Positions 22,959-30,069 of a stretch of 34,194 nt of DNA are shown here, one piece after another. Where the stretch lies: IMG/VR virus record IMGVR_UViG_2541047826_000010; one strand, 5' to 3'. Under the pieces are notes generated by a model that saw nothing but the letters and a program-made list of their open reading frames with translations, made no database searches and had not been told where the DNA came from. Within the stretch, counting starts at the first letter, position 1, and each line of letters begins with the position of its first letter. Origin of the DNA: a virus (Duplodnaviria; Heunggongvirae; Uroviricota; Caudoviricetes). Made by a program: the position numbers and the translations under genes.

Positions 22959-23209
22959 TGAAAGAATACCGCTATTCCGGCCCGGCCAGCGGCGTCACGC
23001 TGTCGGACGGAACCGAAATCCTGCTCTGGCCGGGGAAGACGGTTTCCCTGCCGGAGGAGCATGACTACGTGAAGGTACTGGTGGCGCTGAAACATCTGAC
23101 GCCGGTACCTGAAGAGACTAAACCCGCCGGCACACCGGCTGTGCAGTCACCAAAGCGCAGAAGCAGCAGTGACAGCGAAGTGAAAACGGAGGACACCCAT
23201 GGCAGCTAA
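22955..23209 (+). CDS. small hypothetical structural-module protein
   Basis: 84-aa ORF between the connector genes and the sheath gene. Confidence 0.45.
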   Translation: MMKEYRYSGPASGVTLSDGTEILLWPGKTVSLPEEHDYVKVLVALKHLTPVPEETKPAGTPAVQSPKRRSSSDSEVKTEDTHGS

Positions 23210-24626
23210 CTATCTGCATGGTCCCGAAACCATTGAGGTGGAAAACGGAGCCCGCCCGGTTAAAACGGTGAAATCTGCCGTTATTGGCCTGATTGGTACC
23301 GCCCCGATGGGGGATGTCAATACGCTGGTACAGTGCCTGTCTGAGAAAGACGCAGCGGCATTTGGCAGCCAGTTCACCGGCTTTACCATTCCGCAGGCGC
23401 TGGATGCGATTTATGACCATGGTGCAGGTACCGTTCTGGTCATTAACGTCCTCGACCCGGCGAAACATAAAACGGCGATCGAGGATGAGGTGGTTACCTT
23501 TGACAAATCGACAGGGCAGGCCAGACTGGCGCATCCGGTTGTCGCTAATGTGGTGGTGAAAAACAGTGAAGGCAGCACCACCCACACGGCGAACACGGAC
23601 TACCGTGTTGATGCGCAGGCGGGTGTGCTCACGAACCTGGGCAAGGCTATTGAGGCCGGTGGCAGCGTGAAGGTGAGCTATGAGTACGCGGACCCGTCGA
23701 AGGTGACTGCGGCGGACATCATCGGCGGGGTGAATAGCGCCGGAAACCGAACTGGCATGAAGCTGCTTAACGACAGCTTCAACCTGTACGGCTATTTCGC
23801 CAAAATTCTGATTGCGCCGGTGTTCTGCACCCAGAAGAGTGTCGCAGTTGAGCTTATCGCCATGGCAGAGAAGCTGGGCGCGGTAACCTACATTGATGCG
23901 CCTGTCGGTACCACCTTTGCACAGGCTCTGGCAGGTCGTGGCCCGGAAGGCACCATCAACTTCAATACCAGCTCCGACCGCGTCCGTCTGTGCTATCCGC
24001 ATGTGAAGGTATATGACCCGGTGACAAACACAGAGCGTCTGGAGCCGCTCAGCCAGCGTGCAGCAGGTCTGCGTGCCAGAGTCGATCTGGACAAGGGCTA
24101 CTGGTGGTCATCCTCCAATCAGGAGATTCTGGGGATCACCGGCGTGGAGCGCCAGCTGTCCGCGATGATTGATGACCCGCAGAGTGAGGTGAACCTGCTT
24201 AACGAACAGGGGATCACCACGGTATTCAGCAGTTACGGCAGCGGCCTTCGTCTGTGGGGTAACCGGACGGCAGCATGGCCAACGGTCACCCATATGCGTA
24301 ACTTTGAGAACGTTCGCCGCACCGGTGATGTGATCAACGAGTCCATTCGTTATTTCAGCCAGCAGTACATCGACATGCCGATTACTCAGGCGCTGATTGA
24401 TGCACTGACGGAGTCGGTCAACGCCTACGGTCGCAAAATGACTGGTGATGGTGCGGTACTGGGCTTCCGTTGCTGGTTTGATCCGGCCCGCAATCCGGAG
24501 ACGGAGCTGGCCGCCGGGCACCTGTTGCTGAGCTACAAATATACGCCACCACCGCCGCTGGAGCGACTGACGTTTGAGACTGAGATCACCTCGGAATACC
24601 TGTTAACCCTGAAAGGGGGCAACTGA
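23199..24626 (+). CDS. contractile tail sheath protein
   Basis: 475 aa; SD GGAGG; precedes the tube gene with ATGA overlap. Confidence 0.85.
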   Translation: MAANYLHGPETIEVENGARPVKTVKSAVIGLIGTAPMGDVNTLVQCLSEKDAAAFGSQFTGFTIPQALDAIYDHGAGTVLVINVLDPAKHKTAIEDEVVTFDKSTGQARLAHPVVANVVVKNSEGSTTHTANTDYRVDAQAGVLTNLGKAIEAGGSVKVSYEYADPSKVTAADIIGGVNSAGNRTGMKLLNDSFNLYGYFAKILIAPVFCTQKSVAVELIAMAEKLGAVTYIDAPVGTTFAQALAGRGPEGTINFNTSSDRVRLCYPHVKVYDPVTNTERLEPLSQRAAGLRARVDLDKGYWWSSSNQEILGITGVERQLSAMIDDPQSEVNLLNEQGITTVFSSYGSGLRLWGNRTAAWPTVTHMRNFENVRRTGDVINESIRYFSQQYIDMPITQALIDALTESVNAYGRKMTGDGAVLGFRCWFDPARNPETELAAGHLLLSYKYTPPPPLERLTFETEITSEYLLTLKGGN

Positions 24627-25147
24627 TGTCAAAGATTGAGATAAACCGCATCACGAATGCCAACATCTATCTGGATGGTACTAACCTGCTGGGACGGGCT
24701 GAGGAAGTTAAACTCCCCGATGTCTCCATGATTATGCAGGAACACAAGGCGCTGGGGATGGTGGGTAAGGTGGAACTCCCGGCTGGTTTTGACAAACTGG
24801 AAGGCGAAATCAAATGGAACAGCTTTTACCGCGATGCGATGCTGTCTGCCGCGAACCCGTACAGGTCGCTGGCACTGCAGTGTCGTTCCAGCGTCCAGCG
24901 CTACAGCTCGCAGGGGCTGATTGACGAAATCCCGCTGGTCACCTTCCTGACGATTATGTTCAAGAAGAACCCGCTGGGGACGTTCAAACAGCACGAGAAC
25001 GCCGAGTTCTCCAGTAGCTTCACCTGCACGTATATCAGACAGGTACTGGATGGTGAAGAGCTGCTGCAACTGGACTATCTGGCCAACATCTTCCGGGTCG
25101 GCGGTGTTGATCAACTGACTGACTACCGTATCAATATCGGGGGCTGA
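24626..25147 (+). CDS. tail tube protein
   Basis: 173 aa; size and position after the sheath match Mu M / P2 FII-type tubes. Confidence 0.8.
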   Translation: MSKIEINRITNANIYLDGTNLLGRAEEVKLPDVSMIMQEHKALGMVGKVELPAGFDKLEGEIKWNSFYRDAMLSAANPYRSLALQCRSSVQRYSSQGLIDEIPLVTFLTIMFKKNPLGTFKQHENAEFSSSFTCTYIRQVLDGEELLQLDYLANIFRVGGVDQLTDYRINIGG

Positions 25148-25149
25148 CG

Positions 25150-25431
25150 GTGAGTGTTGAACTGACGGATAAAGGAGGACGATGTGCGGCACTGGGCATG
25201 TCAAATGGTACGTGGTTTACCCTCCTTGATATTCCGGGGGTGGAAACCCTTTTTAATACCCGTAAAACCAATGACCCGATTGACTGCACACGTTCAAAGG
25301 CCCGCAAACTGGCGGATTTGATTGAAGCATGGGAGCCTCCCGACCACTGGTTCTCCGGCATCGGCAAATCTGAGGGAAAGACGCTTCTCATCGCTTTCCT
25401 GCGTAACTGCAAGGGGTTTCGCACTTGCTGA
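25150..25431 (+). CDS. hypothetical protein (start uncertain)
   Basis: 93-aa ORF from GTG 25150 (in-frame ATG at 25198); followed directly by a terminator hairpin; a strong SD AAGGAGG at 25172-25178 serves an out-of-frame 15-codon ORF instead. Confidence 0.35.
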   Translation: MSVELTDKGGRCAALGMSNGTWFTLLDIPGVETLFNTRKTNDPIDCTRSKARKLADLIEAWEPPDHWFSGIGKSEGKTLLIAFLRNCKGFRTC

Positions 25432-25437
25432 CATCAC

Positions 25438-25460
25438 AGGGGCTCCGGCCCCTTCTTCTT
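25438..25460 (+). terminator. candidate intrinsic terminator after the sheath/tube block
   Basis: AGGGGC-TCCG-GCCCCT hairpin (25438-25453) followed by TTCTTCTT. Confidence 0.45.
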
Positions 25461-25528: not shown

Positions 25529-25864
25529 ATGTCACAGACCCCATCCGATACTTTTAAATTGTCTTATCCCTTCACCACTGCTGCAGGCACCAGAATTGAG
25601 CTGGTTGAACTGAAACGCCTGACGGTAAAAGACCTGAAGCAGGTGCGCAAAATCAGCAAAAACCCGGCAGACTGGGACGAACCGCTGATTGCCCGCAGTA
25701 CTGGTCTTCTCCCGGAAGATCTCGACAATATGGATCTGGCTGATTACCTGCAGTTACAGAAACGATTTCAGCTCATCACGGGGATGGGTGAGAGCAACCA
25801 GGGCGCTGACGCAGGCGCAGGGGCTGCTGGCGAGATGGTTCCGGTTTCAGCCGGGGGAGATTGA
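25529..25864 (+). CDS. tail assembly chaperone (P2 gpE-like)
   Basis: 111 aa; TFKLSYPF...IELVELKRLTVKDL...LLPEDLDNMDLADYLQL matches the gpE-family pattern; sits between the tube and tape-measure genes. Confidence 0.7.
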   Translation: MSQTPSDTFKLSYPFTTAAGTRIELVELKRLTVKDLKQVRKISKNPADWDEPLIARSTGLLPEDLDNMDLADYLQLQKRFQLITGMGESNQGADAGAGAAGEMVPVSAGGD

Positions 25865-25946
25865 TGCCCTCGATACTGACGATCTGGAGATGTGGCTGGA
25901 GCAGGCTGAAGAGCAAATAAAAAGCGAGTACGGCGACAAATCATAG
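25529..25946 (+). CDS. candidate frameshift-extended chaperone (gpE+E'-like), shift +1 or -2 at the G5 run 25853-25857
   Basis: An overlapping ORF in the +1 frame continues past the gpE stop with a protein-like acidic tail (EIDALDTDDLEMWLEQAEEQIKSEYGDKS) and has no plausible start of its own; G-run three codons before the stop. Confidence 0.4.
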
Positions 25947-25951
25947 TACAG

Positions 25952-25972
25952 ACAGCCGCCAGTAGCGGCTGT
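25952..25972 (+). terminator. stable hairpin immediately after the frameshift-ORF stop (attenuator or terminator candidate)
   Basis: ACAGCCGC-CAGTA-GCGGCTGT, perfect 8-bp stem; only a weak T-tract follows. Confidence 0.3.
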
Positions 25973-26021: not shown

Positions 26022-28973
26022 ATGTCGGGACAGTTTTCAGTCGGCGTTGTTATCGGCGGGATGATTGGTAGCACATTCCGTTCTGCAATGAGCGGTACCC
26101 GCCGTGCGCTTGATTCCCTGAGCGATACCTCACGCCGCCTGCAGGAACGTCAGAACGCTTTAACCCGTGCAACAGAACGTTATGGTCAACTGGGTTCTTC
26201 CCGGATGCAGCATCTCAACAGCGAGCTGCTGCGGGTAAGCCGCACCATGGAGCAAATTGAGCGCCAGCAGCGCCGTCTGTCAGCGGCATCCGCTACCAGT
26301 GATGCGCTGAAAGCTAACCGCATGGCGCTGTATGGTCAGGGGATTGAAGCGTATGGCATGGCACAGACTGTTTATCATACGGTTTCCCCTGCCGTTCAGC
26401 AGTCCATGTCTTTTCAGGACAAAATGATTGATATGTCGATCACCGCAAAATATGACAATAAAACGCGGGATGCACTTGCCGGACAGATAAAAGGCTGGGC
26501 GCTTAAATACAATCAGTATCAGGATGAGCTGCAGGAGGCGGTGGGTTCACTCATCAGCGACAATATTGATAATGTGTCAGATATCGGTTTTCTGATGCCG
26601 GATATTGCCCGCGCGGCAACGGCAACACGCACGTCTGCTCAGGACTGGGCAAAAGTGGCCGCAGTCTGGCAAAACTCCCTGAAAGGTGCGGCCAGAGATT
26701 TTGGTGCCGTTCAGAATATTATGGCTTATGCCGGTGACCAGGGGTCATTTGAAATCCCGGATCAGGTCAAGTGGATGCAGTCCCTGGCCCCAATGATGGC
26801 GGGTATTGCCAGTGGAAAAGAGGCTGTTGCTGAAATCGGGGCCAGTCTCCAGATAGCAAAAATCGGTGCAGGTTCCACCGACGAAGCAGCCAATAATTTT
26901 AAAAACTTTCTTACCAAAATTTTTGCCCGCGATACTCAGAAACAGTTTGCTGATCTGGGTATTGATTTGCAGGGATCTATTGCGAGTTATAAAGCTGCGG
27001 GGATCTCTCCGATTGAAGGGATGTTGAGTGTTATAGAACGTTACCTCAATGCCAAAAGCCCCGAAGCGCTGGCCGGCTTCAAATCAGCCATGAAAATAAA
27101 GAATGATACGGCAAGAGATGAGGCACTTCAGGCTCTGGCGAAAAACTTTGGTCTGGGCGATATGTTCGCGGATATGCAGGTCATGGCATTTATCCGCCCG
27201 ATGCTGGCCAACATGGACAGATATCGAGAGATCCGTGCCGGTGCTCTCAGGGCTGCGGATAACGATTTGCTTGCCAGTGCTTATGATCAGCGGCTGAAAT
27301 CTCCCCTTGAAGCCACTAAAGCACTTATGGTCAGCAGTCGTGATCTGGCAATTACGCTGGGCGATCAATTAGCTCCATCTTTTATTTCTCTGACTCAGGA
27401 ACTGCTTCCACTCATTCAGGGGGCAAAACACTGGGTAGCGACTCACCCGCAATTTGTCAGTGGGGCTTTTAAGCTCATCAGTGCGCTCCTTGCGATTAAG
27501 ATAGCGACTGTTGGTCTCAAACTGGGGCTGAATCTCCTTATTTCCCCCTTTGTAAGTGTCTGGAAAAATGCTGTTTTACTTCGGGCCAACTGGCTTCGTC
27601 TGTCGCTCGCACTGGGGCAAGGCGGTAAGCTCCGCTGGCTGGTGACCGGATTTAGCGCCGTCGCCAAAGGAGCCAGAACACTGAGTGGCGTGCTCTCCGG
27701 GGGGCTGGTTCGCGGAATTATGCTCGCCGGACGTGCTGTTCTCTGGATTGGACGTGCGCTGATGATGAATCCCATCGGTCTCGTTATCACCGCTGTCGCG
27801 GCAGCAGCTTACCTTATCTACCGCAACTGGGGGGCAGTCAGTGGCTGGTTTAAACAGCGCTGGGCAGACATTCAGGAAGCCTTTAACGGCGGCATTGTGG
27901 GAATTGGTAAGTTGCTGATTAACTGGTCGCCGGCAGGCCTGCTCTATAAAGCCTTTGCGGCTGCGCTGAAATATTTCGGCGTTGCTCTGCCGGCAAAGTT
28001 CACCGACTTCGGTGGCCATCTTATCGACGGTCTGATTAACGGTATCAAAAACAAATGGGGGTCGCTCAAATCCAGTGTAACCGGAATGGGTGACAGCATC
28101 AGTAGCTGGTTTAAACAGTGCTGGGCTGACATTCAGGAAGCCTTTAACGGCGGTATCGCGGGAACTGGTAAGCTGCTGATTAACTGGTCGCCGGCAGGTC
28201 TGCTCTATAAAGCCTTTGCAGCTGCGCTGAAATATCTTGGTGTTGATCTGCCGGCAAAGTTCACCGACTTCGGTGGCCATCTTGTCGACGGTCTGATTAA
28301 CGGTATCAAAAACAAATGGGAGTCGCTCAAATCCAGTGTAACCGGAATGGGTGACAGCATCAGTGGCTGGTTCAGCGAAAAGCTGGGCATTCATTCGCCG
28401 AGCCGCGTGTTTATGGGCTTTGGTGACAATATCGCGCAGGGGGCCGCCATTGGCCTGCAGCGGACCACTCCGCTTGCAGCTCTGGCCGGGCAGCGAATGG
28501 CCAGTGAACTGCTCCCCAAAATGCCCGTGAGCATTCAGGGGCCAGAAATACGGGATAACACTTCAGGTGTTCGCTTCAGTATGCCGTTGCCCGATATCAA
28601 TGGGTTTATGTCGTCTGCTAAAAATGCGATCGGAGCCGTAATCAATAGTTTGTCTTCCATGCCCGCTATTCCGCTCTCCACCCGGGCATCGATTTTACCA
28701 GGGCAACGTCTGGCAAATGAGATGACACCGGATGTTCCCCGTATCCCCTCGCCTGAAATCCTGGCTGCCGGATATTCAGGCCGTGGTGCAGCTGCAACCG
28801 GCGGTGGAACGTCTGGTGGTATCCAGGTCAGCTTTAATCCTCAGTTTTTCCTCAATGGCAGGGAAACCACAGCGCCTGCCGGACTGACTGGCGCCCTGAA
28901 TATGAGCCTGCATGAGCTGGAAAAAATGCTGGAGCGTCTGCTGGCTCAGAAACAACGTAAGGAGTACCGCTGA
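26022..28973 (+). CDS. tail tape measure protein
   Basis: 983 aa, helical N-terminal half, internal hydrophobic segments, position after the gpE-like chaperone; contains an 87-aa tandem duplication. Confidence 0.9.
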   Translation: MSGQFSVGVVIGGMIGSTFRSAMSGTRRALDSLSDTSRRLQERQNALTRATERYGQLGSSRMQHLNSELLRVSRTMEQIERQQRRLSAASATSDALKANRMALYGQGIEAYGMAQTVYHTVSPAVQQSMSFQDKMIDMSITAKYDNKTRDALAGQIKGWALKYNQYQDELQEAVGSLISDNIDNVSDIGFLMPDIARAATATRTSAQDWAKVAAVWQNSLKGAARDFGAVQNIMAYAGDQGSFEIPDQVKWMQSLAPMMAGIASGKEAVAEIGASLQIAKIGAGSTDEAANNFKNFLTKIFARDTQKQFADLGIDLQGSIASYKAAGISPIEGMLSVIERYLNAKSPEALAGFKSAMKIKNDTARDEALQALAKNFGLGDMFADMQVMAFIRPMLANMDRYREIRAGALRAADNDLLASAYDQRLKSPLEATKALMVSSRDLAITLGDQLAPSFISLTQELLPLIQGAKHWVATHPQFVSGAFKLISALLAIKIATVGLKLGLNLLISPFVSVWKNAVLLRANWLRLSLALGQGGKLRWLVTGFSAVAKGARTLSGVLSGGLVRGIMLAGRAVLWIGRALMMNPIGLVITAVAAAAYLIYRNWGAVSGWFKQRWADIQEAFNGGIVGIGKLLINWSPAGLLYKAFAAALKYFGVALPAKFTDFGGHLIDGLINGIKNKWGSLKSSVTGMGDSISSWFKQCWADIQEAFNGGIAGTGKLLINWSPAGLLYKAFAAALKYLGVDLPAKFTDFGGHLVDGLINGIKNKWESLKSSVTGMGDSISGWFSEKLGIHSPSRVFMGFGDNIAQGAAIGLQRTTPLAALAGQRMASELLPKMPVSIQGPEIRDNTSGVRFSMPLPDINGFMSSAKNAIGAVINSLSSMPAIPLSTRASILPGQRLANEMTPDVPRIPSPEILAAGYSGRGAAATGGGTSGGIQVSFNPQFFLNGRETTAPAGLTGALNMSLHELEKMLERLLAQKQRKEYR
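27844..28365. repeat. 261-bp tandem direct duplication (2 copies) inside the tape measure gene
   Basis: GCTGGTTTAAACAG... recurs at 27844 and 28105 (period 261 bp = 87 codons); the two protein copies differ at only a few residues. Confidence 0.85.
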
Positions 28974-29857
28974 TGTTTGCCGTACTGGGTGATATTGAGT
29001 TTGAGCTGATTACCTACTGGGACGGCTTCGAGGCCACGTTCGGCGTCGATTATGCGGAGCATGCCCGCATCGGGGGTAAGCCTGGCCTGCAGTTCGTCGG
29101 CGACAGGCTGGACGAAATCCAGATAACTCTGGTTTTCCATCAGCATTATTGTGTACCCGATGTGGAGCTGGCGAGACTGCGAACAGCCATGAAAGCCCAT
29201 CAGGCACTGGCGCTGGTCTTCGGCAACGGTGACTATCGTGGCTGGTTCGTGATTACCGATGTGACCGCAACCAGCGAGCAGACAGACAGCACCGGTAACG
29301 TGCTGGCTGTCAGTGCCACCGTGTCTCTCCGGGAATACACCGGTGATCCGAAAAATCCTCTGCAACCACCGGCAATACGCACGAAGCTCCCGGGTGTCGG
29401 GGCGGTCTCCGGTGCCATTCCTTCACCTTCAGGGGTGGCGCAGTTCATCCGCAACGGCGTCAACTATGCGAAACAGGCGCAGTCTGTACTCCAGACCACT
29501 ATCAGCGCCGTTCGGGTGACACAGAAAATGAAGGATAACCCCGTTGTCGCACTGACCCGTGTGCCGGGGCTGATGAGCGGACTGGGTAATATCTCCGGGG
29601 CTCTGGGGAAAAGTGTTCCGGCGTTTAACGCACTCTCTGAATCCATGCCCGATGCCATCAGTCTGGCCAGAACAGCCAGCGAAGCAGCCACGTATGTACA
29701 GCAGGCACAGTCTGCGCTGAGTGGTGTGGACAAAAGAAATATTGCAGGTGCTCTGGATACCGTTTCCGGGCAGCTTAACGCCGCCGGCACAGCATTCAAC
29801 CGCATGTCTCCGGGATTAAGTGCAATGGCCGCCAGAATACTGACGAGGAGTGTGTGA
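28973..29857 (+). CDS. tail protein with P2 gpU-like N-terminal domain
   Basis: 294 aa; N-terminal LGDIEFEL...HARIGGKPGLQFVGDRLDEIQITLVF resembles the gpU / tube-terminator family pattern; follows the tape measure. Confidence 0.55.
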   Translation: MFAVLGDIEFELITYWDGFEATFGVDYAEHARIGGKPGLQFVGDRLDEIQITLVFHQHYCVPDVELARLRTAMKAHQALALVFGNGDYRGWFVITDVTATSEQTDSTGNVLAVSATVSLREYTGDPKNPLQPPAIRTKLPGVGAVSGAIPSPSGVAQFIRNGVNYAKQAQSVLQTTISAVRVTQKMKDNPVVALTRVPGLMSGLGNISGALGKSVPAFNALSESMPDAISLARTASEAATYVQQAQSALSGVDKRNIAGALDTVSGQLNAAGTAFNRMSPGLSAMAARILTRSV

Positions 29858-30069
29858 TGTTTCTTGAACATGTTACCCGTGACGGAGAGCGCTGGGATTC
29901 GCTGGCATGGCAGTACTACGGTGACCCGCTGGGCTATCCCCGGATTATTGCCGCCAATCCGCACGTGGCCATCACGCCGGTGCTGCCCTCCGGGCTGTTG
30001 TTACTGATCCCGGTGATTGAGACTGAAGAAGCCCGTACAGAAGAGGATATTGCCCCATGGCTGAGATAA
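29854..30069 (+). CDS. tail protein X (P2 gpX-like)
   Basis: 71 aa; HVTRDGERWDSLAWQYYGDP...IIAANP matches the small gpX family. Confidence 0.65.
   Translation: MMFLEHVTRDGERWDSLAWQYYGDPLGYPRIIAANPHVAITPVLPSGLLLLIPVIETEEARTEEDIAPWLR

Follow-up and report, generated by a model that had tools for sequence, protein, structure and literature searches.

We analyzed the tail assembly chaperone gene of a 34,194-nt stretch of tailed-phage DNA (IMG/VR record IMGVR_UViG_2541047826_000010; hereafter the window, meaning this whole stretch), in which two overlapping reading frames are probably joined by a programmed ribosomal +1 frameshift. The window is a BcepMu-like (Bcepmuvirus-type) Escherichia coli prophage with a P2-type contractile-tail module: its chaperone region is 99.7% identical to that of Escherichia phage PhiKM, which is classified as a Bcepmuvirus, and the same DNA was found in 641 of 5426 complete E. 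coli genomes searched. The chaperone gene (25529–25864, plus strand, in the program-made list of open reading frames (ORFs)) encodes 111 amino acids followed by TGA. An earlier sequence-only reading of this DNA had called it a gpE-like tail assembly chaperone, and this call is borne out by a match of residues 8–81 to PF10109 (Phage_TAC_7, “E, or 41 or 14”; E = 5.5e-21, 74.8 bits, cutoff 25), the N-terminal domain of the P2 gpE/E+E′ and Mu gp41 family, and by its location between the tube and tape measure genes. That location is the one occupied by lambda G/GT-type genes and is canonical for the tail-assembly-chaperone frameshift. The ORF falls in PHROG 166 (“tail protein”), carries the RefSeq name “phage tail assembly protein”, and is the short, major product of the chaperone gene.

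The zero frame of this gene ends ...GTT TCA GCC GGG GGA GAT TGA (stop at 25862–25864), and two further frames overlap it. The +1 frame is open from 25689 to a TAG stop at 25944–25946 and reads ...FQPGEIDALDTDDLEMWLEQAEEQIKSEYGDKS, while the −1 frame closes at 25918–25920 after a basic, low-complexity peptide (...SRGRLMPSILTIWRCGWSRLKSK) that is short and unconserved, much as the sequence-only reading had described it. The same reading had proposed that ribosomes enter the +1 frame, instead of making the usual −1 shift, and that they slip on a run of five G residues (G5, 25853–25857) just before the zero-frame stop. Comparison of the overlap among homologous prophages, which it had suggested, separates these two proposals: the +1-frame ORF running to 25946 is present as a conserved coding extension in more than 100 relatives, and a shift into the +1 frame is the most plausible route to it, but the G5 run is not conserved.

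For these comparisons, 88 related loci from genome and viral collections yielded a first set of 62 distinct close relatives, and per-position entropy was computed over 60 distinct relatives. Divergent additions comprised a Salmonella prophage, Ralstonia phage YO107_2 and Pseudomonas phage Komp_PAO1_1, each with its own relatives, and the Burkholderia BcepMu clade; a profile scan with alignment A2 gave mostly close relatives, so three divergent single queries were used instead. The full set held 225 loci with 115 distinct chaperone-plus-extension sequences, to which frames were assigned with hidden Markov models (HMMs) of both domains. The extension lies in the +1 frame in 110 of these sequences, in the −1 frame in two (both P2/lambda-type, one carrying G_GGA_AAG) and in frame 0 in three, all of which have 1-nt deletions in or beside the G-run. 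The +1-type sequences span phages of Enterobacterales, Burkholderia (BcepMu), Pseudomonas and Ralstonia, that is, four host groups. Conservation of the +1-frame peptide across more than 100 relatives exceeds chance and begins well upstream of where the sequence-only reading had started it.

Read from the proposed shift, the +1-frame segment (25770–25946, plus strand) consists of 58 codons (SSSRGWVRATRALTQAQGLLARWFRFQPGEIDALDTDDLEMWLEQAEEQIKSEYGDKS) plus TAG and matches PHROG 8286 (E = 2.7e-34); joined to 80 zero-frame codons, it would complete a predicted fusion of 138 residues. Tryptic peptides encoded in this frame are ALTQAQGLLAR, GWVR, and FQPGEIDALDTDDLEMWLEQAEEQIK. The conserved E′-like core (LLARWFRFQPGEIDALDTDDLEMWLEQAEEQIK; 25824–25925, plus strand) was recognized through HMM matches to P2-type E′. 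An extension HMM built only from 77 distinct +1-type peptides matched the −1-frame E′ of Pasteurella phage AFS-2018a (2e-10) and of locus L223 (1e-8), matched residues 108–134 of P2 E+E′ weakly (E = 0.008), and showed no similarity to the Mu extension (E = 9.4). The extension also reached E = 0.01 (15.8 bits, below the cutoff of 23) against Pfam PF06528, Phage_P2_GpE; searches with the predicted fusion found no match among solved structures, and NCBIfam gave no matches. These similarities suggest that the core is homologous to the E′ (T-like) domain of P2-type relatives and, on weaker grounds, to that of P2 itself. The overlapping ORF is a real, conserved coding extension. As in lambda G/GT-type systems, this overlapping ORF has no conserved start of its own: 10 distinct sequences contain no start codon at all, and a start preceded by a Shine-Dalgarno (SD)-like motif occurs in 15 of 109.

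The position of the frame change could be bounded from both sides. Mean entropy at zero-frame codon positions 1/2/3 was 0.39/0.27/0.89 over codons 1–78 (25529–25762) and 0.52/0.11/0.03 over codons 95–111 (25811–25861); variation thus moves to zero-frame position 1, where the +1 frame has its wobble position, and selection therefore acts on the +1 frame from at least 25811, a point 42 nt upstream of G5. A conserved Phe codon, TTT at 25766–25768, lies further upstream. In every clade a +1-frame Trp follows this Phe by 1–6 codons; in the window it lies at 25785–25787, and the quartet xTGG has an invariant TGG and a fully variable x, so that the +1 frame is already selected there. On the other side, 22 distinct sequences have a +1 frame that becomes open just 8 nt before TTT. 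Together, the stop-codon bounds and the conserved Trp confine the shift to roughly 25758–25785, and the only conserved element within this interval is CGA_TTT_C.

This element, CGA_UUU_CAG in the mRNA (25763–25771, plus strand; UUU at 25766–25768, overlapping UUC at 25767–25769), lies ~87 bases upstream of G5 and is, on the strength of its conservation, the proposed +1 frameshift cassette. The allowed interval extends from the upstream +1-frame stop to either the beginning of the E′ core or the zero-frame stop; in 109 of the 110 distinct +1-type sequences it holds precisely one zero-frame TTT with C as the next base. This TTT always occupies the same alignment column, that of Phe80 in the window protein, where the PF10109 domain ends, and gives the overlap a conserved candidate slippery site, as in lambda G/GT-type genes. 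Contexts are CGA TTT CAG/CAA/CAT in Enterobacterales, CGA TTT CTG/CTT in Ralstonia-like sequences, GTG TTT CGG in the Pseudomonas clade, and TCC/GCC/TCT TTT CGC/CGT in Burkholderia (UCC_UUU_CGC in BcepMu itself); ACG TTT CAA also occurs. The residue after the site Phe varies among Q, H, L, and R, and the first base of its codon is C without exception.

Codon choice at this site differs from that at control columns. The site Phe codon is TTT in 109/109 sequences, compared with TTT/TTC ratios of 52/15 and 20/66 at two control conserved Phe columns, and the background TTT fraction of Phe codons is 0.54 in low-, 0.39 in mid-, and 0.24 in high-GC loci (high: GC ≥0.62). UUU followed by a pyrimidine is thus kept against the synonymous UUC, as expected of a UUU_Y site. 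The preceding Arg codon, where present, is CGA in 86/86 sequences, compared with mainly CGC, CGT, or AGA at three control conserved Arg columns. Across the 60 relatives from the window's clade, CGA TTT CAG shows zero nucleotide entropy at eight of nine positions and 0.24 at the last.

Weighing this evidence, we put the probability that a programmed +1 shift at CGA_UUU_C, and not at G5, feeds the chaperone extension at about 0.8. It also seems likely, if slightly less so, that CGA_UUU_C (UCC/GCC/GUG_UUU_CGN in GC-rich hosts) is a conserved, stimulator-poor +1 cassette serving a whole clade of P2/Mu-type tail chaperones. Briefly, most ribosomes would read the zero frame to 25864 and make the 111-residue gpE-like chaperone, and a minority would shift +1 at CGA_UUU_C (25763–25769). 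There, peptidyl-tRNA-Phe would slip from UUU (25766–25768) to UUC (25767–25769), leaving AGC (25770) as the next codon. The tRNA-Phe anticodon GAA reads UUU through a G-U wobble and UUC by Watson-Crick pairing, which makes forward re-pairing favourable; the event is read as +1 because tRNA-Phe slipping by −2 from UUU would meet GAU, CCU, or UGU, none of which pairs. During the slip CGA would sit, weakly paired, in the E site. Decoding of CGA involves an inefficient I-A wobble, and at prfB weak pairing in the E site reportedly promotes +1 shifting. Transcriptional slippage is implausible as the source of the frame change because the site contains no long homopolymer.

The resulting 138-residue fusion, with a predicted mass of about 15.7 kDa, would carry the PF10109 domain through Phe80, a short linker with the conserved Trp, and then the E′-like domain (LLARWFRFQPGEIDALD...). 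If the pair works like lambda G/GT and P2 E/E+E′, the tape measure protein, which is presumed to bind the chaperone, would be coated by both forms, and the extension of the long form would recruit the tube protein, the ratio of short to long form being set by a low shift frequency.

Several observations count against this placement. There is no sharp switch in constraint: from TTT to ~25790 substitutions are still zero-frame-dominated (e.g., ACN at codon 84), so the assignment of the exact shift codon depends on motif conservation and stop-codon bounds. Furthermore, no conserved stimulator was found upstream or downstream. An upstream SD-like motif is missing in 58 of 109 sequences and inconsistently spaced in the rest, the downstream fold of 25763–25880 is not significant (z = −0.71), and folds of ten representatives (z = −3.5 to +1.2) share no common structure. 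The zero-frame A-site codon is CAG here and CTG, CGG, CGC, or CAA elsewhere; these codons are not rare in their hosts, whereas a slowly decoded or rare A-site codon would be expected of a UUU_Y site. Since the A-site codon is not rare and no stimulator is evident, a low shift efficiency is expected, which would suit the long form of a chaperone. The part given to CGA draws on E-site and A:I-wobble literature and is correspondingly tentative. Finally, the relatives share phylogeny, so that 109/109 does not represent 109 independent observations and corresponds to some four to five deep clades.

Slippage of tRNA-Gly on G5 (GGG_GGA, 25853–25858) by −2 or +1, yielding ...VSAG(G)EIDALD... as the sequence-only reading supposed, has an evident appeal: the run stands in the zero frame just before the window's stop, the downstream ORF lies in the right frame, and the verified −2 site of phage Mu is also a G5 run (CGG_GGG_CGA). 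The relatives nevertheless make it highly improbable. At least 33 of the 62 distinct close relatives terminate the zero frame before the G-run is reached, at a TAG equivalent to 25841–25843 of the window; in KP12 and Phi06_2974 B (~83% identity), for example, the sequence is GTT TAG ATT TCA GCC GGG GGA, which places the stop 9 nt 5′ of the run, and all differences from the window there (AGA/AGG, TTC/TTT, CGG/AGA) are synonymous in the +1 frame (RWFRFQPGE). The run itself is replaced in relatives by CCTGGGG, CCAGGGG, CCTGTGG, or CCGAGTG, read in the +1 frame as Q-P-G/V/S-E, that is, by synonymous or conservative Pro-Gly changes. The conserved E′ core (LLARWFRFQPGEID..., LLARWFRFQP...) begins at 25824, 30 nt upstream of G5, so a shift at G5 would lose it, and constraint on the +1 frame is seen from ~25811. 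G5 runs are also frequent in the window: both strands together hold 49, fewer than the 88 ± 11 expected from shuffles, and such a run is in itself nothing unusual. Read in the +1 frame (Q-P-G-E), the G5 run (25853–25857, plus strand) covers the last base of Pro, the Gly codon, and the first base of Glu; it belongs to the Pro-Gly-Glu codons of the conserved core and is not the shift site. More generally, a homopolymer beside a stop codon says little about where a shift occurs until relatives have been compared.

A +1 or −2 shift at some lineage-specific site between 25772 and ~25810 would agree with the gradual switch in constraint and with the mixed signals at codons 82–94, and the window does offer a G4 at 25780–25783. 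Two candidates in this neighbourhood were tried and rejected: ACG_GGG_A at 25778–25784 is not conserved, ACG GGG ATG being ACT GGG CTG in most relatives, and GGG_G at 25820–25823, considered as a +1 site, varies to GGGC, GGGT, or GGGA, all synonymous in the +1 frame (QGLL). Only CGA_TTT_C is conserved, the Trp at 25785–25787 implies that +1 reading has already begun by then, and a downstream site would leave the strict conservation of TTT and C unexplained; we therefore regard such a site as unlikely. Translation of the +1 ORF from an internal start, with no frameshift, is how gene callers have treated it when calling a separate small gene (BcepMu gp42; PHROG 8286), and some ATG, GTG, or TTG does occur in the +1 frame upstream of the core in 84 of 109 sequences. 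This explanation is very unlikely given the scarcity of starts with an SD-like motif and the sequences with none at all; in addition, P2 produces the homologous E′ solely as part of the E+E′ fusion (P2 record), and neither the conservation of TTT_C and CGA nor the tight stop-codon bounds would be accounted for. Indels breaking the arrangement in some genomes (L011, L087, L092) might suggest that the 111-residue chaperone suffices and that the +1 ORF is a relic without expression or arises from dual constraints acting on the RNA or DNA. Either possibility is hardly credible, however, when purifying selection on the +1 frame is strong from E. coli to Burkholderia hosts, with abundant synonymous changes, and when the peptide shares homology with the −1-frame extension of P2-type relatives and, to a lesser degree, with P2 E′.

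Some features of individual sequences around the G-run and the zero-frame stop deserve mention in their own right. G5 is shortened to G4 in several assemblies (L011, L092, and L228–L233; proteins P0003–P0005 and P0007–P0009), some of them from read sets such as ERR10498991 and SRR24308101. The deletion puts the last part of E′ in frame with the chaperone (VSAG|EIDALD), the very product predicted by the sequence-only reading, although here the DNA itself is altered. In L087 a C immediately preceding the run is deleted. L228 has a second homopolymer deletion nearby, which makes read errors a likely, though unproven, cause of the G5-to-G4 change; otherwise these would be decaying prophages. The zero-frame stop is polymorphic among relatives (TAG at the 25841–25843 equivalent, TGA at 25862–25864, and other positions), and the C-terminal tail of the short chaperone appears unconstrained, conservation of AAGEVVPVSA being imposed by the overlapping +1 frame. 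Between E. coli phages and Ralstonia phage YO107_2 (H7, L093), whose chaperones share only 43% protein identity, a 42-nt island (25823–25864) reaches 90.5% identity; it coincides with the most strongly conserved stretch of the E′ core (LLARWFRFQP). The Ralstonia phage has a G5 of its own (GGC GGG GGA) just 5′ of the core, which is not conserved in its clade.

Among the closest known systems, P2 E/E+E′ resembles the window in several respects. The two chaperones share the PF10109 domain and the position between tube (FII) and tape measure (T), and the window extension is weakly similar to P2 E′. The P2 −1 site (Gly83-Phe84-Leu85, T_TTT_TTG) falls at PF10109 HMM positions 76–78 and the site Phe of the window at ~74, so both sites lie on Phe codons at the C-terminal edge of the domain, ~3 HMM positions apart. 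P2, in contrast, shifts −1 on a U-rich heptamer, whereas the window extension is in the +1 frame and UUU_C stands in place of any heptamer; 31 zero-frame codons follow the site in the window and 6 in P2; and P2 E′ overlaps the T gene, whereas E′ and the tape measure gene are separated here by 75 nt and a hairpin.

The gp41 gene of phage Mu reportedly undergoes a −2 frameshift at CGG_GGG_CGA (work attributed to Xu, Hendrix, and Duda in 2004). Mu and the window have in common an extension in the +1/−2 frame relative to the chaperone, a PF10109 match of the chaperone (weak in Mu), and a G5 run near the zero-frame end; both are transposable-phage relatives with contractile tails. The Mu G5, however, is an experimentally verified site, whereas that of the window is unconserved and inside the extension domain. 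A Mu-type shift would call for the whole extension to lie downstream of the slip site, unlike here, where the E′ core starts 5′ of G5. Furthermore, Mu gp41 has a PF23746 (Gp41_Mu) domain (9.1e-35) for which the window protein gives no match, the Mu site lies ~19 residues past its PF10109 match, and the Mu extension is unlike the window E′. The resemblance of the G5 run to the Mu site is thus superficial.

Lambda G/GT resembles the window in making two nested products from a gene just 5′ of the tape measure gene, and differs in shifting −1 at G_GGA_AAG and in having no sequence similarity of G/T to the window. Its long form, GT, is made at about one-thirtieth of G, and such a low-frequency long form is regarded as a likely bridge between the tape measure and the tube or major tail protein (PMC5009743). 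As for the slip itself, UUU_Ynn is a recognized bacterial +1 shift-prone sequence even where no stop codon is present, the Yersinia YopN-TyeA fusion has been proposed to arise at UUU_Y, and the shift of influenza PA-X takes place at UCC_UUU_CGU, where the 5′ UCC contributes (PMC5009743). The window site shares with YopN-TyeA (UUU_UGG) and PA-X a zero-frame UUU plus pyrimidine, on which tRNA-Phe can re-pair at UUY and which needs no stop codon; UCC_UUU_CGC of the BcepMu homologue and GUG_UUU_CGG of the Pseudomonas clade share this pattern. The genes and biology are unrelated in both cases. PA-X relies on an A-site CGU that is rare in its host, whereas CAG in the A site of the window is common in E. 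coli, and the enterobacterial and Ralstonia-like clades have a conserved 5′ CGA, unlike the UCC of PA-X; their site, moreover, is recognized here by sequence comparison. Forward (+1) chaperone cases are also annotated in SEA-PHAGES actinobacteriophage genomes (PMC10885494). They involve other chaperone families, and PRFect searches runs of three to four identical bases as +1 motifs (PMC10885494). Unlike prfB-type sites, the site considered here has a sense codon in the A site, and more than half of the sequences (58/109) lack the SD-like motif.

Tail-chaperone frameshifts are textbook examples of recoding, and nearly all characterized ones are −1; natural bacterial +1 sites are few and hard to recognize. 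The feature described here is probably a variant of the known tail-chaperone frameshift, previously unannotated in the records examined. If the proposed shift is correct, the PF10109 family would reach its extension by −1 (P2), −2 (Mu), or +1 (BcepMu-like) shifts, and one chaperone family would have changed shift direction during evolution, with P2-type and window-type sites essentially co-located. Bacteria would then have, in this site, a natural equivalent of the UCC_UUU_CGU cassette of influenza PA-X. Its limits are comparatively well defined for a +1 site, its conserved CGA is unusual, and no stimulator is obvious; it would offer recoding research a testable cassette.

Neither the 138-residue product nor the slippage leading to it is annotated in PhiKM, KP12, BcepMu, vB_E274, Bise, or the RefSeq E. 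coli records; only the short protein is annotated in PhiKM, KP12, RefSeq, Burkholderia phage vB_E274, and Pseudomonas phage Bise. PHROG 8286 groups the +1 ORF with BcepMu gp42 under “unknown function”. In the BcepMu record (L097, AY539836, 4603–5364) the +1 ORF is gp42, “probable lambda G”, and gp43 is the claimed slippage product; the latter is an ORF in the gp41 frame that runs into the tape measure start, has no Pfam match, and looks like a spurious high-GC ORF. By homology, BcepMu gp41 is the PF10109 chaperone and the C-terminal part of gp42 the E′-like domain. On the proposed reading, annotation would be wrong or incomplete for BcepMu gp42/gp43, for PHROG 8286, and for prophages in hundreds of E. 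coli genomes. No +1 site in BcepMu-like chaperones was found in the literature searched; an earlier mention in Xu et al. 2004 or Summer et al. 2004 is possible. A protein-database search with the predicted fusion returned several 138-residue single-ORF proteins, with junctions after GESNQ, after KSDK, or at VSAG|EIDALD. We considered and rejected these as annotated slippage: their junctions are assorted and none is KRF|SSSRGW, which points to indel variants.

Around the chaperone gene the tail module runs, all on the plus strand, sheath (23199–24626; PF04984/PF17482), tube FII (24626–25147; PF04985), a small ORF of 93 residues (25150–25431; weak DUF7739 match), chaperone, tape measure (26022–28973; 983 residues, PF10145 with E = 2e-20, from the ORF list), gpU (28973–29857), and gpX (29854–30069). 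The 93-residue ORF is present in PhiKM and KP12 and absent from the examined stretches of the BcepMu, P2, and Salmonella (L094) records. It is followed, just 5′ of the chaperone gene, by a terminator-like hairpin at 25438–25453 (AGGGGCTCCGGCCCCT plus a T-rich tail).

The perfect 8-bp hairpin that the sequence-only reading had placed after the +1 ORF is indeed there: ACAGCCGC (25952–25959) pairs without mismatch with GCGGCTGT (25965–25972) across a 5-nt loop, CAGTA (25952–25972 overall, plus strand). It is terminator- or attenuator-like and has no part in the shift. A hairpin at this position is kept in enterobacterial relatives (L005–L092) with different stems and loops, for example AGCCGC/GCGGCT, GCAGCCGG/TGGCTGC, and CAGTAGCC/GGCTGCTG, and some of these are followed by a T-tract. 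A simple terminator scan did not call the hairpin at 25952–25972 because its T-tract is weak. Situated between the chaperone and tape measure genes, it may be an internal terminator, an attenuator, or an mRNA-stabilizing element.

Within the tape measure gene, a 261-nt tandem duplication (27838–28372; 2.0 copies, 93% identical) encodes two copies of an 87-residue segment (WFKQ.WADIQEAFNGGI...SLKSSVTGMGDSIS). Close relatives vary in tape measure length: the gene encodes 983 residues here, spans 3213 nt in E. coli 510016, and is 2466 nt long in KP12. These differences could correspond to different tail lengths.

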